This document shows positions 2,288 through 26,480 of a stretch of DNA of 64,000 nt, in pieces. How positions within the stretch are numbered: position 1 is the stretch's first letter; every line of letters starts with the position of its first letter. The position numbers and the translations under genes are program-made. The stretch lies in the NCBI RefSeq assembly GCF_054482525.1, contig NZ_CM137006.1, one strand, 5' to 3'. The notes beneath the pieces were generated by a model. That model made no database searches, had not been told where the DNA came from, and saw only the letters and a list, made by a program, of their open reading frames with translations.

Positions 2288-4924
2288 TTAACGACATTCA
2301 GCTGATAGCTGGGTTAATAACTGCTGCTGACTCTCTGGTGGCAGTTGATAATTGGCGACACAGTGAGCATTTTCCTCTTCTCCCCATTTCACCTGAACTT
2401 TTCCCGCTAAAGGCATTCCGCTGAGGTAAACCTGACCATTATCCGCAACAATGCCGCTACTCTGGCTACTCTCTGATGTCACCATCGCCCCAAACGGCAG
2501 CGGCTTATTATTGTGGGTTAGCGTCATGAGCAGTTTTATCCCAACGCGCGCTTTAAACTCTGCTCGCACTATCGCCCCACGAGTGGGAACAACGTTAGCG
2601 ACCGCGTTATCTAAATCGACGTTATCAGCCAGGGTATTGGTATCCAGCGCTACTCTGTTTTCCCGATATTCAGTGGCATAAGGCAGCACGGCATAACCGC
2701 GCCAGTCGGTACGCACCCCCGTCTGGTTTTCGACTTTTGCATCTTTTGCGCCAGGCGCTTTAACAAGCACTACCGTATCGTTTAACGGCTGCCCCAGCGT
2801 TACGCCATTGGCATGAGCCAGTACCCCACCGCTGACTCCGTAATAGAGCTGCTTAATATCATCGCTATGGCTGTAACCGATGTTGGCATTGCCGTAACCA
2901 CCGCGATAATTCAGCGTGGCGTAGCCTGTACTTCCGCTATTACCATCACCTCCCCCGGCGTAACCGGTTTGCACGCTATAGCTGAGGTTGTTGTCTTCCA
3001 GCAACGTACCGTATACACCGGCCAGATTGGTCATCCGACCGTTGAGATCGTGTGACATGCTGTAACTGGCACTGGCATGTCGCCACTGAGATTTACTGTC
3101 AGAACGCAGCCAGTGGCTGAAAGGAATATTGACGTTAAGCGCTAACATCTGATCCCGTCCTTTTTGCCAGGCGTTTTTCGTCAGGCTATAGCTGAGCGTC
3201 CAGTTGATATCTTCGAATGCAGTATTTAAACCAGCCTGGAATTGCTCATCGACATTATTCGTTCCCCAATAAGTTTGATGGCTACCACTCAAATACAGTG
3301 TTGATGAGCGCCCGAGTTGCTGAGTAACGGTGAGCTGTAATTTCCCGCGTTTGTTATAAGCGAGGTTGTAATAGTCGGTGAATTTCGGCTTAACCTGAAT
3401 AACTCCGTCCTGTGTTTCGATGTTGTAGCCATTCATTCGACTGTATGTTGTATCAGCGAAATTAAAATATCCGCTGGTCGAATAACGGTAACCCACTAAC
3501 TGAATATTCGTGCCTGACTCATTGAGCGATTTGTTATAGAGAAAACGCACCGATTGTCCGTCATGCTGACTGTCATCGGGAAGTGTGGAATTAGCCTGCG
3601 TCATATCCACAGACAGAGCACCCAGTGCCCCCATGTTTTTCCCGATACCGAAATTAAAAGCACGATAACGATCCGCCAGTTGCGTTCCACCATATATTGT
3701 CCAGCCAGCCGGAAGGCCGTGGAGTAATGTACTCTGGAAAAAGCGGGGTTTTTCCTGTTGCGCATTTCCACTACGGTATTCTCCTGCCGTAATGGAATAA
3801 CGAGTATGCCCTTCACGTTGCAAAAGCGGGACTGACGAATAGGGTACGGTAAAAATCTGCGTGCTGCCGTCAGCCTCTTTGATCGTTACCTGCAAGTCAC
3901 CACTATTACCTGCGGCATAGATATCGTTGATGGTAAAAGGCCCCGGTGGCACCGTACTATTATAAATGTCATACCCATTTTGTTTAATAGTGACCTGTGC
4001 AGTACCACGAGCAATACCGTGGATCACCGGGGCAAATCCTCTTTGGCTATCGGGTAACATATTGTCATCTGAGGCCAATTGTGCGCCGCGAAAGTTAATA
4101 CCATCGAAAATATCGCCCTGAGTATAACCATCACCCAGCGTCAGCCGGGAACGTAACGGAATTATGTCTCGCTCAAGCCAGGTATTGATATGCTGCCATT
4201 TATTTTTGCTACCTGATGAACTGTCGCTACTGTTATAACTCCAGGTGGTATTGTCGCGTAAACGCCACGCACCAATATTTAACCCACTCTGTAGGTTTAA
4301 ATATGCATAATGGCTGTTACCCCCAATCCGATTCTGTACACTATTTCCGCTAAAATTATAATTGAGCAATCCGGCATTAATACCGGGATCCCATAACTCA
4401 GGAGGAATATAACCACGCGCGCGATTACTCATAAATGCCTGAGGGATCGTCAGGTTGAGTCGCTGCTGACCAACATCTAAATGCGCAGTAGCGTCATGGA
4501 TCATTGAGGTTAATGGCACGCAGGCATCATCCGCCAGCAGATTCATACCGGAGACAGAAGCCGTATTCAGCCCCATACCGGCAAGTTGCGCGCGTGTCAG
4601 GCAGGGAACAATCCCTTGTTCACTGTCGCCCGTATTAAATGTGACATCACGCGTTGCCATATAACCATTATTCAAATAGATATCGACACGATACGTCCCT
4701 GGCGGTAATTCTTGCCCATTCTCAAAACGCGATAAATCAGCCACAGCCTGGGGATCATCCGCTAAAAAACGCGGGTTAAAATAGAGTTCGGCAGATGACA
4801 AAGGTGCCTGTGCGGCAAAAGCACAAGCAACAAAGAACCGGACAAAAAAACCAGCCAAACGATGCTTACGAATATGCAAGCATTGTGTGTTTCGCTGGTA
4901 AAGTCTTAAATTCAGATATGACAT
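2288..4924 (-). CDS. fimD: Outer membrane usher FimD
   Basis: 878-aa ORF, usher family size and sequence; operon position. Confidence 0.95.
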   Translation of the reverse strand: MSYLNLRLYQRNTQCLHIRKHRLAGFFVRFFVACAFAAQAPLSSAELYFNPRFLADDPQAVADLSRFENGQELPPGTYRVDIYLNNGYMATRDVTFNTGDSEQGIVPCLTRAQLAGMGLNTASVSGMNLLADDACVPLTSMIHDATAHLDVGQQRLNLTIPQAFMSNRARGYIPPELWDPGINAGLLNYNFSGNSVQNRIGGNSHYAYLNLQSGLNIGAWRLRDNTTWSYNSSDSSSGSKNKWQHINTWLERDIIPLRSRLTLGDGYTQGDIFDGINFRGAQLASDDNMLPDSQRGFAPVIHGIARGTAQVTIKQNGYDIYNSTVPPGPFTINDIYAAGNSGDLQVTIKEADGSTQIFTVPYSSVPLLQREGHTRYSITAGEYRSGNAQQEKPRFFQSTLLHGLPAGWTIYGGTQLADRYRAFNFGIGKNMGALGALSVDMTQANSTLPDDSQHDGQSVRFLYNKSLNESGTNIQLVGYRYSTSGYFNFADTTYSRMNGYNIETQDGVIQVKPKFTDYYNLAYNKRGKLQLTVTQQLGRSSTLYLSGSHQTYWGTNNVDEQFQAGLNTAFEDINWTLSYSLTKNAWQKGRDQMLALNVNIPFSHWLRSDSKSQWRHASASYSMSHDLNGRMTNLAGVYGTLLEDNNLSYSVQTGYAGGGDGNSGSTGYATLNYRGGYGNANIGYSHSDDIKQLYYGVSGGVLAHANGVTLGQPLNDTVVLVKAPGAKDAKVENQTGVRTDWRGYAVLPYATEYRENRVALDTNTLADNVDLDNAVANVVPTRGAIVRAEFKARVGIKLLMTLTHNNKPLPFGAMVTSESSQSSGIVADNGQVYLSGMPLAGKVQVKWGEEENAHCVANYQLPPESQQQLLTQLSAECR

Positions 4925-6356: not shown

Positions 6357-6905
6357 TTATTGATACTGAACCTTGAAGGTCGCATCCGCATTAGCAGCAC
6401 CCGGGGTTGCAGCAGCGGTTGCAAAATAACGCGCCTGGAACGGAATGGTGTTAGTACCGTTATTCAGGGTTGTTTCTGCACTAAATGTCGCACCGTCCAG
6501 CGCCAGCGCAGCACCGGTTCTGTCCAGAATTTGCACACCAACGTTTGTTGCGCTACCTGCAGCAGAACTCTGCAGAGCCAGTACATCAGTATGCGTAGCA
6601 TCAATTGCCGTACCTAAGAAGGCAACAGCGGCTTTTGTGGCAACAGTGGTATCGCAATCATTCAGCTGAATGTTAAAACCAACAGCAGAGCTGGTTGCTC
6701 CAGCCTGCTTCAGGCTAGCGGTACGAACCTGTCCTAACTGAACGGTTTGATCAACAGAGCCTGCATCAACTGCGCAAGCGGCATTAACAACTTCCCCTTT
6801 AAAGTGAACGGTCCCACCATTTACCGTCGTAGTATCAGCCAGAGCCGCTGCGGAACTGAGGGACAGAGCCGACAAAACAACGATTGCCAGAGTTTTAATT
6901 TTCAT
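6357..6905 (-). CDS. fimA: Type 1 fimbrial major subunit FimA
   Basis: ORF 6357..7064 trimmed to [23 protein letters not shown]; recognised as FimA. Confidence 0.95.
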
Positions 6906-7023
6906 GCTGCTTTCCTTTAAAAAACTATTTCTAAATCGACATGGGCAGTCGTTCTGTACACTTTGTTTTGTCAACGAGTTTGACTGCCAACACTGCACAG
7001 TTTTCCCCCAAAAGATGAAACAT

Positions 7024-7337
7024 TTGGGGCCATTTTGACTCATAGAGGAAAGCATCGCGCACAAACTTTTTCAGTTTATTTGTTGGCTTGATATTCTACC
7101 GTTATCTTTATTTATAGATTTTTATATTGCATGAGGTGGTTTTTGGAGAGAAGAATGAGGAAGTTGCTTCGAGACACAGAAACGTTAGCTTTACATTTAG
7201 CGGAGGTGATGTGAAATTAATTTACAAGAGAAATAATTTACATATCAAACAGTTAGATGCTTTTTGTCGTTTTTTAATATTTTTATGCTTGAGAAAAAAT
7301 ACGTAACTTATTTATGATATGGACAGTTTGGCCCCAA
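7024..7337. promoter_or_regulatory. fimS: fimS invertible switch, 314 bp, bounded by 9-bp inverted repeats TTGGGGCCA (7024-7032) and TGGCCCCAA (7329-7337)
   Basis: Both inverted repeats are visible in the sequence at the expected spacing between fimA and fimE. Confidence 0.9.
7289..7318 (+). promoter_or_regulatory. sigma70-like promoter inside fimS (-35 TTGAGA at 7289-7294, -10 TATGAT at 7313-7318), firing rightward toward fimE (switch OFF)
   Basis: Hexamers read from the sequence with an 18-bp spacer; orientation is relative to fimA on the minus strand to the left. Confidence 0.6.
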
Positions 7338-7384
7338 TTGTCTTGTATTTATTTGTTTTTTAACTTTATTATCAATGAGTTAAA

Positions 7385-7981
7385 TCAAACCTCTTCTCTT
7401 TTTAATTTTTCGTTTATGAGATTATTTCTTTCCCATAATCCGGCAAAACGAGCAGCATTACTGGCGGTATAACGCACAGTATGGCGAATATTTCGATGCC
7501 CGAGATAATCCTGAATTAAACGGGTATCGGCACCACGCTCCGCCAGTTCATAACCACAAGCATGCCTTAACATATGAGGATGAGTCTGCGTTACGGTTCC
7601 AGCTTCAATACCGGCATCGCGAATAATGCGATAGGCCTGCTGGCGAGAAAGCCGACTCCCGCGGCGAGAAATAAATATAGCGTCGGTCCGGTCAGCGCCT
7701 TTCCAGTTAGCACGTTCCTGGGTCCAGCGTTCCACGGCTTCACGCTCATCAAAACGTAACGGGTGAACGGTAGAAAATCCGTTCTTCAGTCGGCGAATAT
7801 TTATTCGACCTTCATTAAGGTCAAGGTCCTGATAATGCAGATCAAGCAGTTCACTAATACGCATCCCATGCCGATATGCCAACAGAATAAGACAATAATC
7901 TCTGGCTCCCGTTGCCCCGTAACAAACCGCCTGCATCATGGCCTGAACTTCTTTACCGGTAAGATAACGACGTTTACTCAC
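7385..7981 (-). CDS. fimE: Tyrosine recombinase FimE (ON-to-OFF switching)
   Basis: 198-aa ORF; integrase-family C-terminal motifs (HxxR...Y); position next to fimS. Confidence 0.95.
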   Translation of the reverse strand: MSKRRYLTGKEVQAMMQAVCYGATGARDYCLILLAYRHGMRISELLDLHYQDLDLNEGRINIRRLKNGFSTVHPLRFDEREAVERWTQERANWKGADRTDAIFISRRGSRLSRQQAYRIIRDAGIEAGTVTQTHPHMLRHACGYELAERGADTRLIQDYLGHRNIRHTVRYTASNAARFAGLWERNNLINEKLKREEV

Positions 7982-8459
7982 AATAGTAGTACTCCTAACT
8001 GAGATATATTTGAATGAATACCTATAGGAAACCTCAATCGGTCAAAATTAGCCCAATAGATAAAAAGATAACCACACACGAAGTGATGTGGCTATCAGTC
8101 AATTACATTAAATATCATACAAAAATAAAATATCACTGATGTGACAACATCTATTTTCATTGATTTGATTCAATATAACAATAGATTGCAGTGGATTAAC
8201 TTCCCAGTTGCTTAAAAAATAAAGAAAAAAGTATGAAAACAGGAGAATTTAAGTGATGTGTAAATTTATGAATGATTTTGTTTATTTATTTTGAAGAACA
8301 CAAACCATTGTATTTTGTATGGATATGGTTAACTTAATGTTTATTATGATAATTAAGAATCACACTTACAATAACATCAATTAATAAATGGTTAATCATT
8401 TTTGATATATCGTAAGAATAATGTGTTTTTTAACACCATCCCTGGTATCCCATCTATCT

Positions 8460-9062
8460 CTATAAAACAGCGTGACGCTGTCTCCCTCTAGCTCTATCCC
8501 AGATGCCGTAAAAACGCCCTGCATTGCTGGCGGTATACCAGACTGTATGACGAATATTGCGATGCCCAAGATAATCCTGGATAAGTCGCGTATCTATTCC
8601 CATATTCGCCAAAGCAAAACCACACGAATGGCGTAACATGTGCGGATGAATCTCCAGTGATAACCCAGCATTACCACCAGAAGTCGAGATAATATGGTAA
8701 AACTGTTGCCGAGAAAGCGGATTCCCCTTACGTGATAAAAATACCCACTCGCTCTCAGCATGCGGATACGAAGTACGGATACTCAACCAGTTTTTTAAAG
8801 CCTGAACTTCTTTGTTCAATAGCGGGTGCGTTGTTGAAAAGCCTTTTTTTAATCGATGGATATATATACACTTTGCCTTAAGATCAATATCCGAAATCCT
8901 CAATCGACAAATTTCACTCGCCCGGAAACCATGAATAAAACAAAGCAAAGTCAGACAATAATTACGTGCTGCATGAGGCCCGGTATTTGCTGCTTTAAGG
9001 AGTGACTCGATTTCACTATGGGTCAGGAAGTTCCTTTTTTTGTTATCAGCCTTATTCTTCAT
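8460..9062 (-). CDS. fimB: Tyrosine recombinase FimB
   Basis: ORF 8460..9092 trimmed to MKNKADNKKRNFLTHSE; paralogue of FimE. Confidence 0.93.
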   Translation of the reverse strand: MKNKADNKKRNFLTHSEIESLLKAANTGPHAARNYCLTLLCFIHGFRASEICRLRISDIDLKAKCIYIHRLKKGFSTTHPLLNKEVQALKNWLSIRTSYPHAESEWVFLSRKGNPLSRQQFYHIISTSGGNAGLSLEIHPHMLRHSCGFALANMGIDTRLIQDYLGHRNIRHTVWYTASNAGRFYGIWDRARGRQRHAVL

Positions 9063-10077
9063 CGTTTTTCCCTTATAATTACAGACGCGCACTAGCTGTG
9101 CTGGGTTAGCAATAATCCAACATTTTAATCCTGATTATGTTTATAAAAGCGAACGTTTGCTTAATAACTAACGTAAGTGGACCAGTTCTTCAGAGTGAAC
9201 TTAAATGGAGTGGCAACAGTTACTTATAATAACGTTGCCATACAAACGCTATGCTCCTGCATGCTATGTACCTTTATATATTTATCAATCTGATACGAAT
9301 CTAATAATAACCCTCATCATTAATGCAACTAATCTTATCTATATATCATGTGATATGTTCTGTAACAAGTAAAATCAACATAAAAAATTCAGCAAAATTT
9401 AATATTCGTTCAACTAGCCGTCTCACATATGACATTATTAGTCAACTCCATTTGCCACAAAATGGCTATTTCATGGAACGCAGTAATTTCTTAGTGGCTA
9501 TTATCATGCTAATGCTTAGGTCCCTAGCGATTATTCCTGGCTGGTTCGTCAGTTTAGGCCATGAGATTGTTACATTCCTTTTTATCATGGAGATATGGGG
9601 GAAAGCAGGAGACGATTTTTTCATCTACATTCGTTGATAAATATGGCTTTGGTCACTAAGACTTAAACCCTCCTCAATCACAGCTGTTCGCCGGGCAATA
9701 CGGCAAACAAACTAAGTGAAACATCATCCTGAAAACACCAACATCAACAAGCCTCTCCAGATCGACTTCAGGAGTGACCAGTTACAAGCCACAAATCAGG
9801 AAACATATTTCATGGTGAGAATTATGATCAGTCTGATGGCGGGTAAACCCTTATTTTCACCCCGCTCACTGAGTTAGCTTGCAAATCTTCCCTTGTTTAG
9901 ACTCTAGATAAATCTCATATAAAACAGGCAATTAAACAAAAACCTTTGGTTTGTGACGGCCTCCACAAATGTTCGTTTAGCTTCACATGGCATCTTCTTC
10001 TTAGAAAAAGATCGACATATTTTGTGACACGAATTGCAAATCTGGTTTTGTTGTATGGATTGCGTGATTTTTGATCT

Positions 10078-10097
10078 GGTATAACAGGTATAAAGGT
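10078..10097. promoter_or_regulatory. Putative NanR operator (GGTATA repeats: GGTATAACAGGTATAAAGGT) beside a GATC site, in the fimB-nanC intergenic region
   Basis: GGTATA-type repeat motif read from the sequence about 420 bp upstream of nanC; NanR consensus recalled from the literature. Confidence 0.55.
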
Positions 10098-10515
10098 GCA
10101 CCACGATAGTCAATGAGACAGGGCATCTCGCAATCTATGGCAAACATCACTTCAGTTCTTTCTCATCGGGTGATGAAAACGCACTTCAGTCTGAAAGGAA
10201 TATGAAAATGAGATCAACAGACACTCTATTTTATGACTCTGGGTAAAATGGATTGAGTAAGTGATATAGCTTACGAACATTCAAATCAATTAAACATCAG
10301 AAGAGATTTTATACTCAGGTATTTAATCTGGCTCTCTGTTTATTTAAATAATGTGGAAGAGAATTTTCACAGGAGACCTTATACAAAAAATATAAAATAC
10401 AGTTACCCGTTGCCAAAGACACTATAAGCCTGGCAAAAAATATTACACAACATAAATGCTAATTGTTTATGCGGGCTTTGTATTGCTTTCTGTATCCTAC
10501 AAATGAGTGAAATTT

Positions 10516-11232
10516 ATGAAAAAGGCAAAAATACTTTCTGGCGTATTATTACTGTGCTTTTCGTCACCATTAATTTCTCAGGCTGCGACACTGGACGTAC
10601 GTGGTGGATATCGTAGCGGAAGCCATGCCTATGAGACTCGACTCAAAGTCAGTGAGGGATGGCAAAATGGATGGTGGGCAAGCATGGAAAGTAATACCTG
10701 GAATACCATTCATGATAATAAAAAGGAAAATGCCGCACTCAATGATGTTCAGGTTGAAGTTAATTACGCGATTAAACTTGATGATCAATGGACGGTGCGC
10801 CCGGGAATGTTAACGCATTTTAGCAGCAACGGCACACGCTACGGACCCTACGTAAAACTGTCCTGGGACGCGACAAAAGATCTTAATTTTGGCATTCGCT
10901 ATCGTTACGACTGGAAAGCTTACCGACAACAAGACTTATCCGGTGATATGTCTCGTGATAACGTTCATCGTTGGGATGGATATGTCACTTACCATATTAA
11001 TAGTGATTTCACCTTCGCATGGCAAACGACGCTATACAGCAAACAGAACGATTATCGCTATGCAAACCACAAGAAATGGGCGACGGAAAATGCATTTGTT
11101 CTACAATACCATATGACGCCCGATATTACGCCATACATAGAATATGACTACCTTGACCGTCAGGGTGTTTACAACGGCAGAGATAATTTATCGGAAAACA
11201 GTTATCGCATTGGTGTGTCATTTAAACTGTAG
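10516..11232 (+). CDS. nanC: N-acetylneuraminic acid outer membrane channel NanC
   Basis: ORF 10507..11232; signal peptide; KdgM-family porin size; synteny. Confidence 0.85.
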   Translation: MKKAKILSGVLLLCFSSPLISQAATLDVRGGYRSGSHAYETRLKVSEGWQNGWWASMESNTWNTIHDNKKENAALNDVQVEVNYAIKLDDQWTVRPGMLTHFSSNGTRYGPYVKLSWDATKDLNFGIRYRYDWKAYRQQDLSGDMSRDNVHRWDGYVTYHINSDFTFAWQTTLYSKQNDYRYANHKKWATENAFVLQYHMTPDITPYIEYDYLDRQGVYNGRDNLSENSYRIGVSFKL

Positions 11233-11251
11233 TAGACAGGAGACAGTCACA

Positions 11252-12358
11252 ATGAATAAAACAATAACGGCGCTTGCTATCATGATGGCTTCATTTGCCG
11301 CAAACGCGTCTGTATTACCGGAAACTCCTGTGCCATTTAAAAGTGGTACCGGGGCAATTGATAACGACACTGTCTACATTGGTTTAGGTAGCGCAGGTAC
11401 AGCATGGTACAAGCTGGATACACAGGCCAAAGATAAAAAATGGACAGCGTTAGCTGCATTCCCTGGCGGACCAAGAGATCAAGCAACCTCTGCATTTATT
11501 GATGGCAATCTGTATGTGTTTGGCGGCATTGGCAAAAACAGCGAGGGCTTGACTCAGGTATTTAATGACGTACACAAATACAACCCCAAAACCAATAGCT
11601 GGGTTAAATTGATGTCGCACGCGCCGATGGGCATGGCGGGCCATGTGACTTTTGTACACAACGGCAAGGCTTATGTTACTGGCGGTGTTAACCAGAATAT
11701 CTTCAATGGCTATTTTGAAGATCTCAACGAGGCTGGAAAAGATTCAACCGCTATAGATAAAATCAACGCCCACTATTTTGACAAAAAAGCAGAAGATTAT
11801 TTCTTCAATAAGTTTCTGTTGTCTTTTGATCCCTCAACACAGCAATGGAGTTACGCTGGCGAATCTCCCTGGTACGGGACGGCTGGTGCGGCGGTTGTGA
11901 GTAAAGGTGATAAAACCTGGCTTATTAATGGCGAAGCCAAACCAGGATTGCGAACGGATGCCGTATTTGAACTTGATTTCACCGGTAATAATTTAAAATG
12001 GAATAAGCTTGCTCCCGTCGCATCACCAGATGGCGTCGCTGGCGGTTTTGCAGGCATGAGCAATGACTCACTGATATTTGCCGGAGGGGCCGGATTCAAA
12101 GGTTCACGGGAAAATTACCAAAACGGTAAGAACTATGCGCATGAAGGCCTGAAAAAATCATATAGCGCTGATATTCATCTTTGGCATAACGGAAAATGGG
12201 ATAAATCTGGTGAATTATCGCGAGGTCGGGCCTACGGAGTATCATTGCCCTGGAATAATAGTTTATTAATTATTGGCGGTGAAACTGCAGGCGGCAAAGC
12301 GGTGACGGATTCAGTTTTAATTTCTGTGAAGGATAATAAAGTCACAGTACAAAACTAA
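11252..12358 (+). CDS. nanM: N-acetylneuraminate mutarotase NanM (Kelch-repeat beta-propeller)
   Basis: ORF 11144..12358 trimmed to MNKTITALAIMMASFAANA; synteny. Confidence 0.85.
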   Translation: MNKTITALAIMMASFAANASVLPETPVPFKSGTGAIDNDTVYIGLGSAGTAWYKLDTQAKDKKWTALAAFPGGPRDQATSAFIDGNLYVFGGIGKNSEGLTQVFNDVHKYNPKTNSWVKLMSHAPMGMAGHVTFVHNGKAYVTGGVNQNIFNGYFEDLNEAGKDSTAIDKINAHYFDKKAEDYFFNKFLLSFDPSTQQWSYAGESPWYGTAGAAVVSKGDKTWLINGEAKPGLRTDAVFELDFTGNNLKWNKLAPVASPDGVAGGFAGMSNDSLIFAGGAGFKGSRENYQNGKNYAHEGLKKSYSADIHLWHNGKWDKSGELSRGRAYGVSLPWNNSLLIIGGETAGGKAVTDSVLISVKDNKVTVQN

Positions 12359-12422
12359 CGCTTCAGGGCCCCGGTAAAGGGGCCTTGCTATCAATTTGTC
12401 ATTTGTATTACGCGAAAATTAT

Positions 12423-13409
12423 ATGAACGCAATAATATCGCCCGATTATTACTATGTTCTTACCGTTGCTGGTCAGTCTAATGCCATGGCGTATGGCGAA
12501 GGACTGCCATTACCGGACAGGGAAGATGCGCCTCATCCCAGAATTAAACAATTAGCGAGATTTGCGCATACGCATCCCGGAGGCCCGTCATGTCACTTTA
12601 ACGACATTATTCCACTGACTCACTGCCCACACGATGTTCAGGATATGCAGGGTTATCACCATCCTCTGGCAACGAATCATCAAACACAGTACGGCACCGT
12701 TGGCCAGGCACTGCATATTGCACGGAAATTACTGCCCTTCATTCCTGATAATGCAGGGATTCTCATCGTTCCGTGTTGCCGTGGCGGATCGGCTTTTACC
12801 GCAGGCAGCGAAGGGACATATTCAGAACGGCACGGAGCCAGCCATGATGCTTGTCGTTGGGGAACGGATACTCCGCTATACCAGGATTTAGTCAGCAGAA
12901 CGCGAGCCGCACTGGCAAAAAATCCGCAGAACAAATTCCTCGGCGTATGCTGGATGCAAGGCGAATTTGACTTAATGACCAGTGACTACGCGTCACACCC
13001 TCAACACTTTAATCATATGGTTGAAGCCTTTCGTAGGGATCTAAAACAATACCATTCTCAGCTTAATAAAATTACTGACGCACCGTGGTTTTGCGGCGAT
13101 ACCACCTGGTACTGGAAAGAAAATTTCCCTCATGCGTATGAAGCTATTTATGGCAATTATCAAAATAATGTTTTAGCCAATATTATTTTCGTCGACTTCC
13201 AGCAACAAGGTGCAAGAGGACTGACGAACGCGCCTGATGAAGATCCGGACGATTTAAGCACGGGATATTACGGTTCAGTGTACCGGTCACCGGAGAACTG
13301 GACGACGGCACTGCGAAGCAGTCATTTCAGCGCGGCAGCCCGTCGGGGGATTATTTCTGACAGGTTTGTAGAAGCAATTTTGCGTTTGTCACATTTTCAC
13401 AAAGAATAG
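12423..13409 (+). CDS. nanS: 9-O-acetyl-N-acetylneuraminate esterase NanS
   Basis: ORF 12396..13409 trimmed to MNAIISPDYYYVLTVAGQSNA (GQSN-type motif); synteny. Confidence 0.85.
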   Translation: MNAIISPDYYYVLTVAGQSNAMAYGEGLPLPDREDAPHPRIKQLARFAHTHPGGPSCHFNDIIPLTHCPHDVQDMQGYHHPLATNHQTQYGTVGQALHIARKLLPFIPDNAGILIVPCCRGGSAFTAGSEGTYSERHGASHDACRWGTDTPLYQDLVSRTRAALAKNPQNKFLGVCWMQGEFDLMTSDYASHPQHFNHMVEAFRRDLKQYHSQLNKITDAPWFCGDTTWYWKENFPHAYEAIYGNYQNNVLANIIFVDFQQQGARGLTNAPDEDPDDLSTGYYGSVYRSPENWTTALRSSHFSAAARRGIISDRFVEAILRLSHFHKE

Positions 13410-14154
13410 TACACGCTATTCCTTGTGCAATCAGGCCAGCTCGCAATAAAGGCAGCAACTATGCTTGAAGCCCCTTTCACCGCCGGATAAATAATATCCT
13501 TACGGCAATTGGTAACCGTATAAAATGCTTGATGTTTTGAACTGCCGTTGACGAAGATGAAGTAATCTGCTTTTTTGGCAGCATCCAATAACGCATCAAT
13601 GGCAACGCGATCATTGTTGAGCTCAATTCATAGCGCCGGATACAATTTCAATAAGGCGTCTTTACCACGTTGCGTGGCATTTTTGTAATACTGTAAAACA
13701 CCCGCTTTTTCCCGCGGAGATTCCGATACAACGGAGACGTTACGCTTGCTGGTATGGTTTCTGTCGGGAGGGTACTACCGATATCCTTACAAACGTAGAG
13801 CTGTTCCATCATGCGTGCCAACAACAGCATACGGATATCCAACCGTTCCCAGCGACGTAGGAACATCTCGCGAATGTTAATCCAGTACTGTAGTCGGCGA
13901 TCGCTATCACCAGATTCACAATCATAAAGAACCTCTGCAATATCAAGAGTATACTTGAGAATTTATGTCGATTCATTTTTCGTGCACAACATTTCGATAG
14001 CTTCGAGGGCATCATGGTATTCTTTGTGACTGAAGGTCCATGAAAGTAACGTATCCAGAATAATCCCTGTAGTTGCCAAAATGAGTTGATCACTACACAA
14101 TGATTTGTTTGTACAGAAGGAACGATTATTATATGTTCTTGTAGGGCAGAGCAC
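13397..14154 (-). pseudogene. Degraded gene remnant: four short minus-strand ORFs in different frames at the left island border
   Basis: Four abutting 60-95 aa ORFs with no intact long frame; could be a yjhR-like remnant but its identity is not determinable by eye. Confidence 0.35.
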
Positions 14155-14271
14155 GTTGCTACGGTAACAGCGTTGAAGATAATTTGGTCGAGACTGTAGT
14201 GGCCCAGTTTAAAAGGTAGCAGAATTTTAAAAGTGTCAGGTGCATAGAATTAAAAAAATGGAACTATAAAA

Positions 14272-16005
14272 ATGGAAATCATGTTACCAAAAAACACCTT
14301 ATATGACAGAGAGCAAAATGTCTTTTTTGAAAAGGTTACGGCCTTAATTGGCGAAAATGGTGCTGGTAAGTCCTCGATTTTACAATCCGTATTTATTAAC
14401 TGTTTAACAAAAAAATATCTACCAGAAACAAAGGTTGTTTGTTTTTCTTCTGGACAAAATGAGAAATACTCAACGTACTTCTCTGATTATCTTTCTCATG
14501 AAAGGCAAGCAAATAGAGGTCTTAACTTAGATTGTTGTTATTACGATAAATCATGGTCAAAGTTACTAATATTCATATCCACAATTTGTAAATCAAATGG
14601 TCTTGTTAGAAATTTTTTATGTGAGAAAGGCTATATTGATGTATCAGATGATAAAAATGATGATATATCAAGCAAGCTTACATTGACGGTCCGAGTAAAT
14701 TCGGCTTACGTTAATCGAGTAAAAATGGCATTAGCACAAGAAGAACAAGGTATTGAAAATACTTTAAGGTATTCAGCTTATCATAGGACTTTAGAAAGTT
14801 TCATTAATAATATTGTTAATGCTGATTATGATTTCGAGTCTCCACTTGAAGCTCAAGAGATCTTGCTAACTCATTCAAATTTTTTCAATCCATCATTTGA
14901 GGAAGCAGAAGATTCCTTTTTTGATCCTATCATAACATTTTTCACTCAAGCAGCAGATAATGATTACTTTATAATAAAACCATCATTACAGCTAGAGTTT
15001 AAAAATAATATCGAACTGAATGATATTAGTGATGGGGAATATCAAGTACTCTTTTTATACTCTCTGCTTGATATTTTTGATAGTCCTAATACTTTATTCT
15101 TATTAGATGAGATAGATTCCCATTTACATTACAAGAATATTGAGCTCTTATGGCATCGACTACATAGTATTAATGGTTATGCGATAACAACCACCCATCT
15201 ATTAGACTCAATTACAGCTACTGATAATGATTTTAAAAACTTAAAGATTGTTGATAAAGGAAAAATAAAAGAAGATGATAAAATAAAAACTATAATAGAA
15301 CGTTTATCTGTCTTGACAAGAATATCAGACGTACAGTTCGAAGTGTGTCGTAAACTAGAAAACATAGTATTGATGGATGATTATAATGATTGGACTATTT
15401 TTTATGCCTTAGCAAAGAAAAAAGGACTTGATGTATCAAAGTTAGATGGCCTCCATGCAATAAAACAGTCCTCTGGTTACGATAATTTAAATCAAGAGTT
15501 CGCAAAACCAAAAATAGAGTGGATTAATTCGCTTTCAAATGTAAATACTGATAAGAAAGTCAAAAAAATATTCATGATCTGCGACAAAGATGAGGCTCCA
15601 ATTACCTATCAGAAAGATGGAGTTCAAGTCAATGGAAGTGAATATTCAAAACATATAGCGAAGTTAGAAAATAAAAACAAAAATAAAATATATCTCCTTG
15701 CTTGGAAAAGAAGAGAAATAAAAAACTACTTATTATCTTATACGGCATTGTCTCATCATGGATTTATCGGGCAAATAAACAATGGTGATCTGCCGGCTAA
15801 CAGTTATTTAAAAGAAAACAATCCTGGAGATAATTCAGCAATTAGCCGGCTTAATGTAAAACATTGCATCACAAAAATAATTGATTCTGATGGTATAGGA
15901 TTAGATATCTCAAAACTTTACTCATATATAGAACTTATACCACCTGCTGAGATCAGTGAAGATATAGTGAACATGTACAATTTTTTGGTGGAGAAATTAA
16001 AATGA
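14272..16005 (+). CDS. OLD-family-like ABC ATPase (577 aa) with a possible C-terminal TOPRIM/DUF4435-like region; candidate restriction component
   Basis: Walker A GENGAGKSS, ABC signature-like ISDGEYQ, Walker B LFLLDEID, H-loop TTTHLL, C-terminal DxD-like ICDKDE; about 30% GC; stop overlaps the next start (ATGA). Confidence 0.7.
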   Translation: MEIMLPKNTLYDREQNVFFEKVTALIGENGAGKSSILQSVFINCLTKKYLPETKVVCFSSGQNEKYSTYFSDYLSHERQANRGLNLDCCYYDKSWSKLLIFISTICKSNGLVRNFLCEKGYIDVSDDKNDDISSKLTLTVRVNSAYVNRVKMALAQEEQGIENTLRYSAYHRTLESFINNIVNADYDFESPLEAQEILLTHSNFFNPSFEEAEDSFFDPIITFFTQAADNDYFIIKPSLQLEFKNNIELNDISDGEYQVLFLYSLLDIFDSPNTLFLLDEIDSHLHYKNIELLWHRLHSINGYAITTTHLLDSITATDNDFKNLKIVDKGKIKEDDKIKTIIERLSVLTRISDVQFEVCRKLENIVLMDDYNDWTIFYALAKKKGLDVSKLDGLHAIKQSSGYDNLNQEFAKPKIEWINSLSNVNTDKKVKKIFMICDKDEAPITYQKDGVQVNGSEYSKHIAKLENKNKNKIYLLAWKRREIKNYLLSYTALSHHGFIGQINNGDLPANSYLKENNPGDNSAISRLNVKHCITKIIDSDGIGLDISKLYSYIELIPPAEISEDIVNMYNFLVEKLK

Positions 16006-17909
16006 ACACCTCTTTATTTGAAGATCTACTTACACTAATCAAGAAAAAGAGTTCGATAAGAAATACAGAGCAAGCAGTAGAGTTAATTTCATTATTTATT
16101 TTTTTACATTATATAAAATTATATCTTTATGAAAATGATAAAAGATTTTCAGATATAAAAAACATATCAAGCAACAACATTAATGAAATTAAATATTATT
16201 ACCAGCAACTATATGAAAGTTTTATTTTCTCGATAGATATAAAAAATATAAACCACGACATGCTTGAAAACCTCAGGAGTAAGATAGGTTTTTTAATTAA
16301 TAACATCAATGACCATGAAATAATTAAATATATAGATTATTCTATTTCGCAGATACATTCACTTACAGAATTCCATCAATATGCAAATTCTTATCAATCT
16401 TTAATTCTTAGGATGGTTAATGAATCGGGTCGTTCAGGTGAATATGTTACTCCATCTGCTTTAGTTCAGCTCATGGTTGAAATGTTATCACCTACAGATG
16501 GCACATCAATCTACGACCCAGCATGTGGAACTGGGGGTTTATTAATAGAGTCAGCACGATATATTAAAGGCAACAGTTTAAACAAAAACTTAAATTTAAA
16601 TTATTCCCTTATTGGTAATGACACATCATCATTTGCCTGTCTAATCTCAATTGTTAACCTTTTAATCAATAAAGAATTTAATTTTGAAATAATACTAAAA
16701 GATAGCTTAGATATAAATTATAAGAATAAAAAATATGACTTTGTTTTAACTAACCCACCATTTGGGAAAAAGAGCTGTTGGGATAATATTCATATTGACA
16801 CACATTATAAAGGACCTAATCTAGACTATTACTTCCTGGAGCATGTTATTGACTCTCTCGCTGTTAATGGCAAAGCAGCCATGATATTACCAGAGCGTTT
16901 TTTATATGATGTGAGTGAAGAGTGCATCACTCTTAAAGATAAGATCTTCCAAAATTATAATTTAGATTGTATTTTATCTATACCGTCAGGTGCATTGCTT
17001 CCTTACACTGCAGTAAAATTATGTATTCTTTTTATAAGTAATTCTGGCCCAACAGATAGAATATTTTTCTACAATTTAAATAATGGTGAAAAATACTCAC
17101 GTACAAATATTATAAAATTCGATGATTTTATAGATTTTTTAGAGTCAGCAAAAAATAGAACAATAACTGAACACTCCTGGATTATCAATATTAGTGATAC
17201 ACCTTCATCTTATAACTTACTCTTAAAAGATAAAGAGCGAAACTCATATGAGTTTCTTAGTGATTCTATAGTTAACATTGAACAGACAATACGTAATAAT
17301 GAATTATTACTAACAGAGTTGTCTTTATTAAGAGAAAAAATAGCAATCTTAGAGTCAACAATAAAAAATCATTCGCATGAATATGAATTTGAGAGACTTA
17401 AAGTTGGAAATATTGCAATAGTAAAATCCGGAAATTTATTACAAAAAAACAGGCTGTTACCCACTGGACCAATTCCTGTATACGGTGGAAATGGAGTTAT
17501 TGGATATAATAATGAAGCAATGGAAAATGGTGAAAATATTATTATTGGTAAGGTCGGAGCTCTTTGCGGAAACGTTCGGTATGTTCAAGGTGATATTTGG
17601 GTGACAAATAACTCATTAATTATTAAGAATTATTCACCAAATAAAGTTTTAACACCCTACCTTGCAAAATTATTATCTACTTTAAACTTAAGAAGGCTCG
17701 CCGTTGGTACCGCTCAGCAATATTTAACCACGACACAAATAAAAAATGTAGAAGTTAGTATTCCACCTTTAACGACCCAGTATAAATTAAATATTTGGCT
17801 TGATGAGTTAGATAATACGCTTGAACAATATAATAATCTCATTGAAAAAATAATGAATGATAAGCGAGAACTTAAAGAGAATTTGTATAAAGGTCTTTTA
17901 ATAGAATAG
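16002..17909 (+). CDS. Gamma-class N6-adenine DNA methyltransferase fused to an HsdS-like target-recognition domain (635 aa)
   Basis: Motif I DPACGTGGLL followed by motif IV NPPFG; C-terminal region resembles type I specificity-subunit TRDs; AT-rich; coupled to the upstream ATPase. Confidence 0.75.
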   Translation: MNTSLFEDLLTLIKKKSSIRNTEQAVELISLFIFLHYIKLYLYENDKRFSDIKNISSNNINEIKYYYQQLYESFIFSIDIKNINHDMLENLRSKIGFLINNINDHEIIKYIDYSISQIHSLTEFHQYANSYQSLILRMVNESGRSGEYVTPSALVQLMVEMLSPTDGTSIYDPACGTGGLLIESARYIKGNSLNKNLNLNYSLIGNDTSSFACLISIVNLLINKEFNFEIILKDSLDINYKNKKYDFVLTNPPFGKKSCWDNIHIDTHYKGPNLDYYFLEHVIDSLAVNGKAAMILPERFLYDVSEECITLKDKIFQNYNLDCILSIPSGALLPYTAVKLCILFISNSGPTDRIFFYNLNNGEKYSRTNIIKFDDFIDFLESAKNRTITEHSWIINISDTPSSYNLLLKDKERNSYEFLSDSIVNIEQTIRNNELLLTELSLLREKIAILESTIKNHSHEYEFERLKVGNIAIVKSGNLLQKNRLLPTGPIPVYGGNGVIGYNNEAMENGENIIIGKVGALCGNVRYVQGDIWVTNNSLIIKNYSPNKVLTPYLAKLLSTLNLRRLAVGTAQQYLTTTQIKNVEVSIPPLTTQYKLNIWLDELDNTLEQYNNLIEKIMNDKRELKENLYKGLLIE

Positions 17910-17989
17910 ATCACAGTAGCAGGGTGTCCACAATACACCCTGCTACTGGTTGCAAGTAAGTTGCAATATCTGTACTGCTGAAGCTACGA

Positions 17990-20900
17990 TTAATAATGCT
18001 CCTCAATATACCCATACGCCTTCTGGAACAACTCTTTATCTTTCCCTAGTCCAAACTGGGCCAAGGTCAGCAAAAGCGCCTTTTGGATTTCGCGCGGGCC
18101 ACTGTTAGAATTTTGCCAGCCATCAAAGCGGGTAGCTTTCACAATTTTATCAATTTGCTCTACAACATCACCGATTAACTTAGGGGTAGTTTCCGGACGT
18201 GTTTCGAGGAAAAGCTTAGTCAACGCCTGTTTATTATCAGCTTCAGTTACTGGACGCTCGCCCGTTTCGCGCTCGGCTTGAACGGTATCTTTCGCTGCAT
18301 CCAACAGGCCTTTCAACCAGTCAATGGCCTTGATAACACCAGCTTCATAGTCCTGACGCAGTTTTTCAAGGCGCTCGCCCAATGCCACAAATTTAGGATC
18401 ATGACTGCCGCGCAAACGTCCCATAAGATCAATCTCCAGGCGTTTAGCACGTTGTTCCTGCTCTTTAGCGGTCAGGGTAAAAATAGCGTGCTCGTCCATG
18501 ACCAACTCGTCAATATCATCGCGAATACGATTGATATCAGTATGCTCATGGATCATCTTGATTGTTTCGGGGCCAAGGGCAGCCCAAACAAGCGCACCTG
18601 TCTGCCCTACCGGACGCACCGATTCATAAATTTGCGCCAGCCATTTATAGTCCTGACGATAAGGGGTCAAAAAAGGGTCTGGGTTGATAGCTGACCATAA
18701 CTTGGATAACACACCAAAGCTGGCAGCGAATTCATCGCGCTTCTCGTTGGTCGGCAGGCATTCCTGCGCGGCCATAATACCTTCAAAACCAGCTATGGAC
18801 CGATCCACACCAGGGAAGAAGGACAAACATTTATTCAGTTGTAACGGCAATAGCTCTTTAAATGCCTCAATTCCCTCTACAACTCCTTCAATTTCTTCAG
18901 GGTTATAGGCCAGAGCGGTACGCAGATTTTCGAAAACGCCGAGGTAGTCGATAATTAATCCCATGTCCTTGCGTACAGTATCGGTTTCGTACAGCCGGTT
19001 AGTTCGGCACATGGCCTGCAGAAGGGTATGATCGCGTAGAGGCTTATCGAGGTACATGCAGTAGCAAATCGGGGCATCAAAGCCCGTAAGCAGCTTGGCG
19101 GTTACGATAATAAGCTGTAATGGATATTCAGGATCTTTAAAGCACTCAATTAGATCCTTTTGCACCTGCTCTTCGGCATCGATGTGCTGCCAGCGTTCAA
19201 AATCGACTTGTTTGACAGGCAGCTCCAACTCATCATGCCATTTAAGCCAATCCTTGTTGAGCTTGTCTTTTTTGCCACCCTCTTCAACTTTAATCGGAGC
19301 CTGGTCAACGTTCATAACCACTTCAACTGCATCAAAACCAAGCTTTTCACCGAGCAAATAATACATCTGCACACAGGCTTCGCGATCGTATACCACAACC
19401 ATGCCTTTCATCTTTTTCGGCATAACATGGTTGGTAAAATGCTCAGCAATATCATTACTCACCGCAGCCATACGTCTGGGAGATTTCAGCATAATAGCCA
19501 GCTTGCCGGCACGTCTGGACAATGCTGCTTTTTCTTCTTCATCCAGGTTGTTTTCGGTAGCCAGTTGCTCGAACTCTTCATTGATGGCATCACGATCCAC
19601 TCGGAGTTCAGCCAGCCGAGGTTCGAACTTCACCGGGTTAGTTGCGCCATCCCGGATCGACTGCTTATAGCTATAGCGGCTCATATAGCGACCTGGATCT
19701 TCTTCGGCACCGAACAATTTGAACGTATTACGATCAATGCCAGAAATCGGAGTACCAGTCAGGCCATAGAAGTGGGCATTGGGCAACGCCCAGCGCATTT
19801 TCTCGCCTAATCCCCCTTCCTGTGTACGGTGAGCTTCGTCAACCAACACAATGATATTGTCCCGGTTGTTCAGGCCATTAGGGTTGCTATCGTCAATTTC
19901 GATATCTTTAAATTTAAAGATGGTGGTGATTAAAATGCCACGGCTGTCTTGTTCAATGTATTCACCCAACTTTTTGCAGCTTTGCACTTTAATCAGATTC
20001 TTAACGTCGGCTCCACCAAAGGTCTCGTTAATTTGGCTGTCCAGATCTCGCCGGTCCACAACGATAAGTACCGTCGGGTTTTTTAACGCATTATCGGCAC
20101 GTAGCATTTTGGCGGCGTAAAGCATCAACAAGGATTTACCCGATCCCTGGAAATGCCAAATAAGACCTTTTTTTGGATAGCCTCTGCGAACACGCTCAAC
20201 AATTTGTTTTGCAGCTTCAAATTGCGGATAACGCGGCAAGATTTTAACGCGTTTAGGTGGAGTATTTTTGCCCGTTTTGACGGTTGAAAATAATGCAAAA
20301 GATTCCAGTAACTGCAATAAGGTTTGCGGATTTAACAAACTCTCACAGCTATTGAGTACCGATGCCAGACCCGGCAAAATTTCATCACGAAGCTCAGTAT
20401 TATGCCAGGGTCCCCAGTCTTTAACTCGGGCATTAATGGCTCCATAGGCAAAGGTTTTACCTTCGCTGGCAAAGCACAGCAAGTTAGGTACAAAGAAAGA
20501 TTCAACATTTTTCCAGTAGTACTTTTTGCCACCCATGAAATCGGCAGCACCGTCTTGCCAGGTCACGCTGGGGCGTGTTGCGGTTTTAACTTCGCCTACT
20601 ACCAGTGGCATGCCGTTCACATAAAGAACAATATCAAAATAGACTTCAGTGGCCGCGATATAGTGAACCTGCTGCGCCACTACAAAGTGGTTGTTCTCTA
20701 TATTGTCAAAATCAATCAGATTGATGGTGATATGGTCGCCATTCTTACCAAAAGGCAAGGTTTTGTCGGCCATCAACCATTCCTGGAAGTTTTCATTGGC
20801 CTTTACCAAGCCGGTATGGCGGGCTTCTAAAACCACTCCTCGCAGTTTGTAAATGACCTCATCGGCATAGTCAGGCTGTCTGCCGATATCAGGGTTTAAC

Positions 20901-21070
20901 GAACAAAGCGCGTCTTTTAGCCACTCATCAACGAATATATCCTGCGCTTGTTTAGGCAGGTTTTCACCGTGGCAGTAAGTCCACTTGACTCCGCTTAAAC
21001 CTTTTAAACGGTCGATAATTCCATTTTCTGTGACGGTTTGTTCGTTAAACATTTTATATTTCCTTATCAA
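17990..21070 (-). CDS. hsdR: Type I restriction enzyme R subunit HsdR (alternative start at 21052)
   Basis: 1026 aa; Walker A GSGKS and DEAH box (VDEAHRTQ); recognisable HsdR N-terminal nuclease region; operon with hsdM/hsdS. Confidence 0.9.
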   Translation of the reverse strand: MIRKYKMFNEQTVTENGIIDRLKGLSGVKWTYCHGENLPKQAQDIFVDEWLKDALCSLNPDIGRQPDYADEVIYKLRGVVLEARHTGLVKANENFQEWLMADKTLPFGKNGDHITINLIDFDNIENNHFVVAQQVHYIAATEVYFDIVLYVNGMPLVVGEVKTATRPSVTWQDGAADFMGGKKYYWKNVESFFVPNLLCFASEGKTFAYGAINARVKDWGPWHNTELRDEILPGLASVLNSCESLLNPQTLLQLLESFALFSTVKTGKNTPPKRVKILPRYPQFEAAKQIVERVRRGYPKKGLIWHFQGSGKSLLMLYAAKMLRADNALKNPTVLIVVDRRDLDSQINETFGGADVKNLIKVQSCKKLGEYIEQDSRGILITTIFKFKDIEIDDSNPNGLNNRDNIIVLVDEAHRTQEGGLGEKMRWALPNAHFYGLTGTPISGIDRNTFKLFGAEEDPGRYMSRYSYKQSIRDGATNPVKFEPRLAELRVDRDAINEEFEQLATENNLDEEEKAALSRRAGKLAIMLKSPRRMAAVSNDIAEHFTNHVMPKKMKGMVVVYDREACVQMYYLLGEKLGFDAVEVVMNVDQAPIKVEEGGKKDKLNKDWLKWHDELELPVKQVDFERWQHIDAEEQVQKDLIECFKDPEYPLQLIIVTAKLLTGFDAPICYCMYLDKPLRDHTLLQAMCRTNRLYETDTVRKDMGLIIDYLGVFENLRTALAYNPEEIEGVVEGIEAFKELLPLQLNKCLSFFPGVDRSIAGFEGIMAAQECLPTNEKRDEFAASFGVLSKLWSAINPDPFLTPYRQDYKWLAQIYESVRPVGQTGALVWAALGPETIKMIHEHTDINRIRDDIDELVMDEHAIFTLTAKEQEQRAKRLEIDLMGRLRGSHDPKFVALGERLEKLRQDYEAGVIKAIDWLKGLLDAAKDTVQAERETGERPVTEADNKQALTKLFLETRPETTPKLIGDVVEQIDKIVKATRFDGWQNSNSGPREIQKALLLTLAQFGLGKDKELFQKAYGYIEEHY

Positions 21071-22241
21071 TCATAGCTTGGCGCAGTTGAATAATTTTCC
21101 CCAAGGATTCATTGTGCCTATAAATATTCTCATACGAACACTTAAACGTATTAATGATTGATGCTTGAATATCGAAGGGAGGAATAGGAATTTGAATTTT
21201 TAAAAAGTTATCTTTATTTATTTTCTTCATACTTCCGCTAGTTCCAGCAGCAATACCTTGAATAGCTCGACGGCCATATGGAGACATCAGATAGTACATT
21301 AAAAACTCTTTTTTAATAAATTTTTCGTCAACAGCCAATCTCCACATCGTGTCTGGGAAAATCGTATTCCCATTGCCAGTCGATCCTTTATATTTTCCAA
21401 CTAAACCAACCAACTCCGCTGTATTAGAACGAGAGATTAACAAATCACCATCATTGCATGTTTTTCCTTTTAAAAAATGATCTTCTGTAATATTTTTTAA
21501 AGTAGTTTCTCTGAATCCTGATTTCGACAAACTATTTAGGTTCAGGACATAGTACCCAGTCCCGACTGCGGTTTCAACAGGAGAATATCCCCCTTCTGGA
21601 GAATCAATTAAAACATCTTTAATAGAACCAAAAGTCCATCCAACCGGAAGAGGAACACATTTATTCTCCCTCGAATCAAAGTAGTTATCAAAAGTCCGTA
21701 GACCAATAGCATATAATAATCTTTTAGCTGCTTTGAGAGCACTTAAATATAGAAGTTCTTTCTTTGCTAACGAATCAAAGATTATTAATGACGAGTATTG
21801 CTGTTCAATGCTCGGTATATTAACTTCTAGTTTATTTAAATCACTCCATTTTATTCGCGATGATAGCGAGCCGGCGGAATTTGCAATCACCTTTTCCATA
21901 AAAGAGGTTGATTGCATCAAGTGGGGTAAGTACCCATCCAATAAGTAGTTGTTTTTCCTTGGTTTAATTACCATTGCATCAGCAGAGCAAATACCATTAA
22001 TAGGGCTCACCGACACCCTTTTTAAATATGTATTTCGTCTACTAAAAATTATTTCGCCACACTTTACCTTAAAGGCTTGTGTTTTCAATTCAACGTCAGC
22101 CCCCCAATCATGAACATAAAAATAACCAGATTTCAAATGTTCCAACCCAATAAAATGCTTAGCATCGTCGCTTGTTGGGGAGATTCTAACCATAACCTGT
22201 TCAGCAAGATCACCAAATGTAACATTTCTTTTATTATTCAT
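21054..22241 (-). CDS. hsdS: Type I restriction-modification specificity subunit HsdS (start uncertain; ORF extends to 22292)
   Basis: About 400 aa, consistent with a two-TRD specificity subunit; lies between hsdM and hsdR with overlapping ends. Confidence 0.8.
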   Translation of the reverse strand: MNNKRNVTFGDLAEQVMVRISPTSDDAKHFIGLEHLKSGYFYVHDWGADVELKTQAFKVKCGEIIFSRRNTYLKRVSVSPINGICSADAMVIKPRKNNYLLDGYLPHLMQSTSFMEKVIANSAGSLSSRIKWSDLNKLEVNIPSIEQQYSSLIIFDSLAKKELLYLSALKAAKRLLYAIGLRTFDNYFDSRENKCVPLPVGWTFGSIKDVLIDSPEGGYSPVETAVGTGYYVLNLNSLSKSGFRETTLKNITEDHFLKGKTCNDGDLLISRSNTAELVGLVGKYKGSTGNGNTIFPDTMWRLAVDEKFIKKEFLMYYLMSPYGRRAIQGIAAGTSGSMKKINKDNFLKIQIPIPPFDIQASIINTFKCSYENIYRHNESLGKIIQLRQAMIDKEI

Positions 22242-25235: not shown

Positions 25236-25478
25236 TGTTGTCTCTTTTCGATCCTGCAGTGCTTGAACTCTCAGCAACTCATGGATTTCACAGTAAAAAA
25301 GCAAGCAAAGCGATTCCACAACCACCTGAGCGTTCAATACGTATGACGCCTTTACCCAAGTTGCTTAAATCAAGGAAATTGCCAGAGATAATACTCTGGC
25401 ATCAGAATGATACCAAGTTGAAGGGCTGATTTCCGCATCAATACCTTGTGGTAATAGGGGATTACTCTTTTACCCTTA

Positions 25479-26475: not shown

Positions 26476-26480
26476 CAAAT

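Follow-up and report, generated by a model that had tools for sequence, protein, structure and literature searches.

The segment between nanS and the AT-rich defence cargo of this DNA is, with near certainty, the dead remnant of a dpdD gene. The remnant occupies positions 13431–14071, perhaps reaching ~14079, on the minus strand of the window, which is the whole 64,000-nucleotide stretch of contig NZ_CM137006.1 (assembly GCF_054482525.1) analysed here. It retains DpdD residues ~505–720, or ~213 codons. The dpd operon ends with dpdD, and Dpd is a 7-deazaguanine (dPreQ0/dADG) DNA modification/restriction system of Salmonella Montevideo and other bacteria. The relic is a real and ordinary pseudogene; it gives no sign of present function and does not represent a novel type of element. 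The fullest explanation, in which a dpdD stub was left in situ by deletions and then decayed, is assigned a probability of about 0.7. Its practical value lies in annotation and history rather than in new biology. RefSeq annotation is blank over the relic in the near-identical strain PCN033, and the PGAP/RefSeq annotation of other strains holds only short hypothetical proteins. A dpdD pseudogene label could now be given to this 860-bp stretch in 102 complete E. coli genomes.

The C-terminal third of dpdD beside nanS

The relic lies between the nanS stop codon (13407–13409) and the start of a 577-aa AAA-ATPase gene (14272). An earlier note on this DNA had described four minus-strand ORFs with no intact frame across them, and all four are present: 13397–13588 (63 aa), 13648–13866 (72 aa), 13809–14093 (94 aa) and 13963–14154 (63 aa). 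The first has been shifted in frame by a 1-bp deletion. The second and fourth share a frame and are separated by one TAA. The note read the four as tiles of one former gene, and three of them are pieces of a single dead gene. The 94-aa ORF, in the third frame, has no family match in a profile search; it is therefore spurious, a chance overlapping frame. The longest stop-free stretch is 114 codons, a length equalled by only 2% of shuffles. Profile searches of the frames upstream (14155–14271) gave no family match. A Pfam scan of the raw fragments, made with a Pfam set that lacks PF28109, was likewise empty, and a plasmid collection held no match to the relic, its sole match being a weak AAA-ATPase similarity in a Vibrio plasmid.

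The identity of the gene rests on translated searches. A translation stitched over the stops and one frameshift matches DpdD proteins with E values of 1e-82 to 1e-85. Three proteins were matched: the E. coli ORF fragments P0001 and P0002, and the 250-aa protein P0003, with 66% identity and an E value of 2e-82. P0003 is encoded by Logan contig SRR26288043_1005597 (L005). It aligns with positions 460–704 of 704 in the NCBIfam DpdD model NF041061, and with positions 478–727 of 729 in the PADLOC DpdD model PDLC02826. The relic's own fragments match PDLC02826 at positions 515–645 (E 5e-28) and 630–726 (E 6.6e-33) of the same 729. A family HMM made for this analysis from 50 full-length DpdD sequences recovers the fragments at E values of 2.7e-29 and 3.8e-40, its alignment starting at window position ~14079. 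The likeness to DpdD (NF041061, PF28109 and the PADLOC model) thus spans the C-terminal ~213 residues. tblastn with DpdD queries, full-length proteins among them (five relatives including P0003, P0004 and P0005; Pantoea ananatis DpdD; two intact E. coli DpdD proteins, O145/O15), places residues ~505–640 in frame -2, running from 14067 to 13681, and residues ~627–720 in frame -1, from 13711 to 13445, the latter collinear with the first segment. The translated protein search proposed in the note thus returned strong DpdD matches, so random open frames are ruled out.

The former gene was much longer than the ~250 aa that the note had estimated. A HMMER search with P0003 returned 903 DpdD relatives; among the matches listed, most are ~700–790 aa, with similarity confined to the last ~250 residues, or C-terminal third. 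Because full-length relatives are matched only by this third, the gene was ~720 aa long and its 3' third is left, as both the tblastn alignments and the lengths of the relatives indicate. The native TGA stop is still present at 13431–13433. Only ~30% of the gene survives, broken by stops and frameshifts, and coverage runs over profile positions ~500–726, short of the ~700–730 aa of full-length DpdD. Even the intact 250-aa P0003 scores only 244.5 bits against the 300-bit equivalog cut-off of NF041061. In place of an intact ORF there are a truncation, two stops and two 1-bp deletions. No other piece of DpdD, N-terminal part included, was found by tblastn in the whole 64-kb window, and a sequence search for a solved DpdD structure returned none.

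The relic stands apart from any Dpd system, whose genes dpdA, dpdB and dpdE–K are not co-located with it; no other dpd gene was found in the window. Pantoea DpdH, I, J and K gave no tblastn match in the 64 kb. The RefSeq annotation of the near-identical genomes PCN033 and SCU-102, which corresponds to window positions ~1–34280, names no dpd gene, and positions 34300–64000 were covered by the sequence searches alone, those for DpdD, DpdH, DpdI, DpdJ and DpdK.

Lesions and decay

The lesions were placed on a codon-anchored DNA alignment of ten E. coli copies with the intact ORFs of L005 and L008 (Pantoea). All coordinates are those of the window, and the gene reads on the minus strand. The 5' truncation at ~14071 is found in 10 of 10 copies. 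So is a 1-bp deletion between 13684 and 13685, a frameshift that falls where the tblastn frame changes (13681–13711). A TGA nonsense codon at 13628–13630, also universal among the ten, replaces a serine codon (TCA) of the intact relative: the window has CTA TGA ATT GAG where L005 has CTG TCA ATT GAG, and the translation reads 'LYPAL*IELNND'. A further 1-bp deletion, again in every copy, lies between 13444 and 13445, five codons before the native stop; the window has TTTATT-GCGAG at this site and L005 has TTTATTCGCGAG. Through this deletion the native TGA (13431–13433) is read through as far as a new TGA at 13397–13399. The resulting tail of 13 residues, WPDCTRNSVYYSL, falls outside the end of the profile.

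Other lesions differ among strains. A TAA nonsense codon at 13963–13965 is carried by six of the ten copies, this window among them, and the remaining four have CAA. It cuts a 168-aa ORF of other strains into 63 and 72 aa: P0001 and P0002 have 'ESKQILKY' in place of the 'EST*ILKY' of the window. A 1-bp deletion at 13479 is present in 7 of 10 copies, not including this window, and single strains have a private 1-bp deletion at 13571 and a private 1-bp insertion at 13925. The proposal that frameshift or deletion had destroyed a former gene is thus borne out by two stops, two frameshifts and a 5' truncation in this copy.

The substitutions also suggest a gene under no constraint. Parsimony assigns to the E. 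coli branch 25/14/30 changes at codon positions 1/2/3, and polymorphisms among the E. coli copies fall 8/6/8. On the branch to the intact ORF of L005 the figures are 11/7/35, biased to the third position. The contrast is of modest significance only (p = 0.046 in a contingency test), and the E. coli branch compared with a uniform distribution gives p = 0.054. The pattern is that of a gene apparently dead already in the common ancestor of the copies and drifting neutrally since.

Borders of the relic and its neighbours

The left junction lies at 13384–13398. Core E. coli homology ends at 13384–13387, within the last codons of nanS. With positions 12800–13600 as query, 5020 genomes match only to 13387 and 102 alone go further; a base-by-base comparison with the BL21-type sequence puts the divergence after 13384. 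The NanS tail reads AILRLSHFHKE* here and AILQFWRER* in the K-12 type. Since the border falls within nanS, the C-terminus of NanS is island-derived in the relic strains. Between the nanS homology and the dpdD-lineage homology, which resumes at 13399, there are ~11–15 bp that may stem from the 3' end of queD; the assignment of positions 13388–13398 to it was rejected, a 9-of-12 match being not significant. The relic does mark the border between conserved nanS and AT-rich cargo, as the note had it: GC content falls from 0.44 to 0.30.

A hairpin at 13398–13427, bidirectional and terminator-like, follows the 3' end of dpdD, with the nanS stop TAG (13407–13409) in its 5' arm. The same hairpin is found 3' of dpdD in the enterobacterial dpd clusters examined, where it separates dpdD from queD; the motif AA(A/G)GAATAGC...GCTATTC(C/T)TT is kept between the two genes in L005, L008 and an E. 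coli O15:H12 sequence (L023). It folds at -11.6 kcal/mol on the plus strand (z -3.7) and -14.8 kcal/mol on the minus strand (z -4.2). A terminator consensus scan of the segment stayed at background level. The hairpin may serve as the terminator of nanS transcription. Such present-day effects of the relic are likely to be incidental, for example the supply of the last nanS codons and stop; the relic probably also spaces nanS from the AAA-ATPase promoter, an effect that is likely to be just as incidental.

The right junction occupies 14072–14097 and joins the middle of dpdD to the truncated distal flank of a restriction-modification (RM) island, with at most 26 bp of filler. Homology to dpdD stops at 14067–14079 and homology to the RM island starts at 14096–14098. 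From 14098 onward the DNA is 87.5% identical to RM islands of Salmonella and K. aerogenes. Positions 14098–14271 form the upstream (promoter) region of the AAA-ATPase gene on the plus strand; they are RM-island DNA and lie outside the relic. The extent of 13397–14154 that had been proposed for the decayed gene therefore holds for its core and fails at the 5' end, where 14072/14098–14154 consists of the junction and of the upstream region of the RM island. The 63-aa ORF 13963–14154 draws its first 28 codons from the filler and from RM-island DNA, so this ORF is a chimera of the relic and its neighbours. A promoter-like site at 14156–14183 on the plus strand is a consensus match only, and a promoter consensus scan of the segment was at background level. 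GC content is 0.438 in the relic, 0.365 in 14098–14271 (0.37 over 14072–14271) and 0.30 in the cargo module. An extension of dpdD homology beyond 14071 was considered and rejected, the family HMM starting at ~14079; the likeness of 'SLCSDQLIL' to 'SLWPDWLML' and a shared CAATGA at 14098–14103 are too short to establish microhomology.

The cargo comprises the AAA ATPase (AriA/mad3-like), a methylase-specificity-domain fusion (mad2-like), hsdR, hsdS and two hsdM genes. It is 87–92% identical to islands of Salmonella enterica and Klebsiella aerogenes, and 81–91% identical to a Raoultella island. The islands of Salmonella, K. aerogenes and Raoultella contain no trace of dpdD, and those of Salmonella and Klebsiella have ~400 bp more in common on the relic side, which E. 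coli lacks. The joint at 14072–14097 is therefore read as a deletion scar. With that deletion, dpdD appears to have lost its 5' part and the RM island its distal flank. The only repeats at the junctions are imperfect inverted matches of 12 and 20 nt, judged to be chance. No attR-type copy of the leuX 3' end was found near the relic, the sole match being the leuX gene itself. Both island borders are now placed to within ~15–26 bp.

The leuX slot and the origin of the stub

The window is 99.98% identical to PCN033, over 1380–33027 only. A complete tRNA-Leu(CAA) gene, leuX, lies at 33004–33088 and is followed by ahr. Positions 13388–33003 are therefore the leuX-to-nanS variable region, and the relic shares the slot and orientation of intact dpd islands. 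E. coli SCU-102 has in this slot leuX-integrase-HTH-hsdM-hsdM-hsdS-hsdR-methylase-AAA-relic-nanS, an integrase-borne island of the type found in Klebsiella and Raoultella. The relic is present in 102 of 5426 complete E. coli genomes, at the same position every time. The AAA-ATPase module accompanies it in all 102; in none does the relic occur alone.

Intact dpd islands occupy leuX in 47 E. coli genomes, and no genome has both the relic and an intact island. A search with Pantoea dpdD matched 149 E. coli genomes, at one place in each: 47 with full-length annotated dpdD and 102 with partial matches, the latter presumably the relic genomes. E. coli O145:H28 and O15:H12 show the order leuX-integrase-hypothetical-dpdA-dpdB-dpdE-F-G-H-I-J-K-dpdD-<queD, with dpdD reading away from leuX and towards fim. 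In Pantoea ananatis dpdH-I-J-K-D is followed by convergent queD. The dpd cluster of S. Montevideo is also located at leuX (PMC5699537), so that this cluster, the 47 E. coli islands and the relic all lie in the leuX hypervariable region. A published study attributes the restriction phenotype to DpdD–K (PMC10164549). Of the enterobacterial dpd arrangement, dpdK-dpdD-hairpin-convergent queD at leuX, the relic retains the hairpin, the location in the leuX region and the orientation; dpdK and queD are absent.

The relic belongs to a divergent lineage. Its identity to intact E. coli dpdD is 44–64% in amino acids and ~65% in nucleotides, which suggests that E. coli was once host to a dpdD lineage other than the one now intact in 47 genomes. 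The nearest relative found is L005, with 74.5% nucleotide identity over 13399–14067 and 67–68% amino acid identity. Both retain the C-terminal third of dpdD only, with the same downstream hairpin. They differ in other respects: in L005 an internal deletion that starts in the 5' part of dpdK and ends within dpdD has truncated the gene at DpdD residue ~460, the ORF is intact with third-position-biased substitutions, and queD is still there.

From the gene identity, the lesions, both junctions, the distribution and the synteny with intact islands, all of which are shown, an order of events and a tandem-island model may be inferred. (i) The leuX slot of an ancestor would have held a dpd island, leuX-int-dpdA...dpdK-dpdD-hairpin-<queD, with dpdD directed towards nanS and fim. 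(ii) A second leuX-targeting, integrase-borne island would then have come in, carrying the type I R/S/M/M genes, the methylase-S fusion and the AAA ATPase. (iii) A deletion would have joined the distal flank of this RM island to dpdD codon ~505; the integrase and dpdA to dpdK would have been lost, along with two-thirds of dpdD from its 5' end. (iv) A second deletion or illegitimate recombination would have joined the region past the dpdD hairpin to the last nanS codons; queD and everything up to nanS would have been lost, and NanS would have gained an 8-residue tail and a new stop. (v) Neutral decay of the stub would have followed, with three more lesions now in all copies and with strain-specific nonsense mutations and indels. 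The tandem intermediate, an RM island beside a complete dpd island of the relic lineage, was found in no genome. Such a history would make the leuX hot spot a concrete case of defence-island turnover, a Dpd island being displaced by a type I RM and AAA-ATPase/methylase island that circulates among Salmonella, Klebsiella and Raoultella.

The composite might instead have been formed in a donor species, where an RM island gained a dpdD fragment distally, for example on integrating next to a dpd island, and then have been imported ready-made beside nanS. This course of events is unlikely, although two observations speak for it: the relic and the AAA-ATPase module are together in 102 of 102 E. coli genomes, and the relic is nearer to the non-E. 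coli contig L005 (74.5% of nucleotides) than to the resident intact dpdD (~65%). It sits poorly with the island as found in Salmonella, K. aerogenes and Raoultella, whose copies are free of any dpdD trace and have different left flanks. The E. coli island is, moreover, at least 400 bp short exactly at the joint with the relic, as a local deletion predicts, and the slot and orientation agree with those of the intact E. coli dpd islands. Variability among strains argues in the same direction, being similar in the relic (4.0% of columns) and in the flanking nanS (5.1%). Deletion in situ is therefore the preferred account of how the stub arose.

A residual function of this stub is far less probable than the imported composite. 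It might reside in the chimeric 168-aa ORF, which is open in some strains (P0001), in the C-terminal DpdD domain, or in regulatory signals for nanS or the AAA-ATPase operon. The segment is whole in all 102 genomes, a stable and conserved hairpin holds the nanS stop codon, and PADLOC includes a 148-position C-terminal 'DpdD' model. L005, moreover, provides a second C-terminal dpdD fragment, independent of this one, whose 250-aa ORF is intact. All copies aligned, however, have a frameshift between the halves of the domain and a stop in the C-terminal half, and various strains have suffered further, independent disruptions. Substitutions fall almost equally on the three codon positions, Rfam yields no structured RNA match to the segment at E <= 1, and promoter and terminator scans do not rise above background. 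It is a still more speculative thought that the DpdD C-terminal fragment is kept on purpose, as a chimeric small protein expressed from the RM-island promoter region, or as a decoy or regulator against incoming Dpd systems. If this were true, the independent C-terminal-only stubs, here and in L005, would reflect selection and not coincidence. The least credible reading is a yjhR-like relic, which the note had offered, or random AT-rich open frames. It is true that K-12 and BL21-type genomes have the yjhR pseudogene at a few hundred bp past nanS, and that yjhR, with the KpLE2 remnant, resembles the relic in being a decayed mobile-element gene in the leuX-to-nanS region. There is, however, no sequence similarity between yjhR and the relic: yjhR belongs to a helicase family and the relic is DpdD. 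blastn in distant mode found no match to the relic in 5324 non-relic complete E. coli genomes, K-12 included. The neighbours of nanS in K-12 and BL21 are ythB, a restriction-endonuclease pseudogene, yjhR and topAI; alignment with this ythB-yjhR-topAI region of the BL21 type (L007, positions 6590–12589) by blastn and tblastx gave a best E value of 0.12, which is noise. The strong collinear DpdD matches speak against both versions of this reading, and homology with K-12-type genomes ends at 13387. The note's broader suggestion, that the segment is the relic of an earlier element, was sound.

The restriction–modification module beside the relic

The dpdD relic is adjoined by a module of approximately 11 kb (window 14272–25400). 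This comprises an AriA/mad3-like AAA ATPase gene (14272–16005), an additional methylase–specificity fusion gene (16002–17909), and hsdR, hsdS and two tandem hsdM paralogues, which lie on the minus strand within the same interval. Related modules are carried on integrase-borne islands of Salmonella and Klebsiella aerogenes (87–92% identity) and of Raoultella (81–91% identity). The module may be more than a plain type I restriction–modification system, namely a composite of such a system with a MADS-like one. The E. coli and Salmonella/Klebsiella copies do not align in the hsdS region (21050–22600), whereas the flanks on both sides are approximately 88–92% identical. This pattern suggests that target-recognition domains have been exchanged at hsdS. 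Directly past the second hsdM gene, RefSeq annotates a frameshifted TIR-domain pseudogene (approx. 25480–26280). In the Salmonella copies of the module, the TIR gene at the corresponding position is intact and encodes 327 aa. The pseudogene is a further decayed defence gene within the leuX-to-nanS variable region.

The nanS and leuX ends of the variable region

In all relic-bearing strains, the terminal residues of NanS and the stop codon (13384–13409) are supplied by island-derived DNA. The resulting tail, RLSHFHKE*, replaces QFWRER*, and RefSeq still calls nanS of these strains as an intact gene. Positions 13397–13408, in the nanS tail and an arm of the dpdD–queD intergenic hairpin, match positions 14018–14029, the dpdD codons for SHKEY, perfectly over 12 nt in inverted orientation (TCACAAAGAATA). 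With an expectation of approximately 0.04 per kilobase-scale region, this match is probably due to chance. At the opposite end, the match to E. coli PCN033, otherwise 99.98% identical, stops at 33027, corresponding to the 3' 24 nt of leuX; beyond that point (approx. 4852539 of its record) the PCN033 sequence is that of a CP4-like island's distal end. In the window, leuX is complete (33004–33088) and is followed by ahr, idn and yjgR; the source of the window is therefore a close PCN033 relative lacking the CP4-like insertion.

Apparently intact Dpd islands and a second dpdD stub

An apparently intact Dpd island with its own queD lies directly downstream of leuX in 47 of 5426 complete E. coli genomes. 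Examples are O145:H28 RM12761 and O15:H12 2273-PO3 (L022 and L023), as well as L024. In these islands no dpdC is annotated, and dpdA is preceded by an 851-bp 'hypothetical' gene. A second, independent dpdD stub, also retaining only the C-terminal part, is present at 2894–3886 of Logan contig SRR26288043_1005597. It arose by an internal deletion that starts in the 5' portion of dpdK and ends at DpdD residue ~460, and its frame is still open (250 aa). The stub lies next to queD and to genes for a Fic protein and an acetyltransferase. The host of this contig appears to be an enterobacterium, as both QueD and the dpdD region are most similar in sequence to their Pantoea ananatis counterparts.
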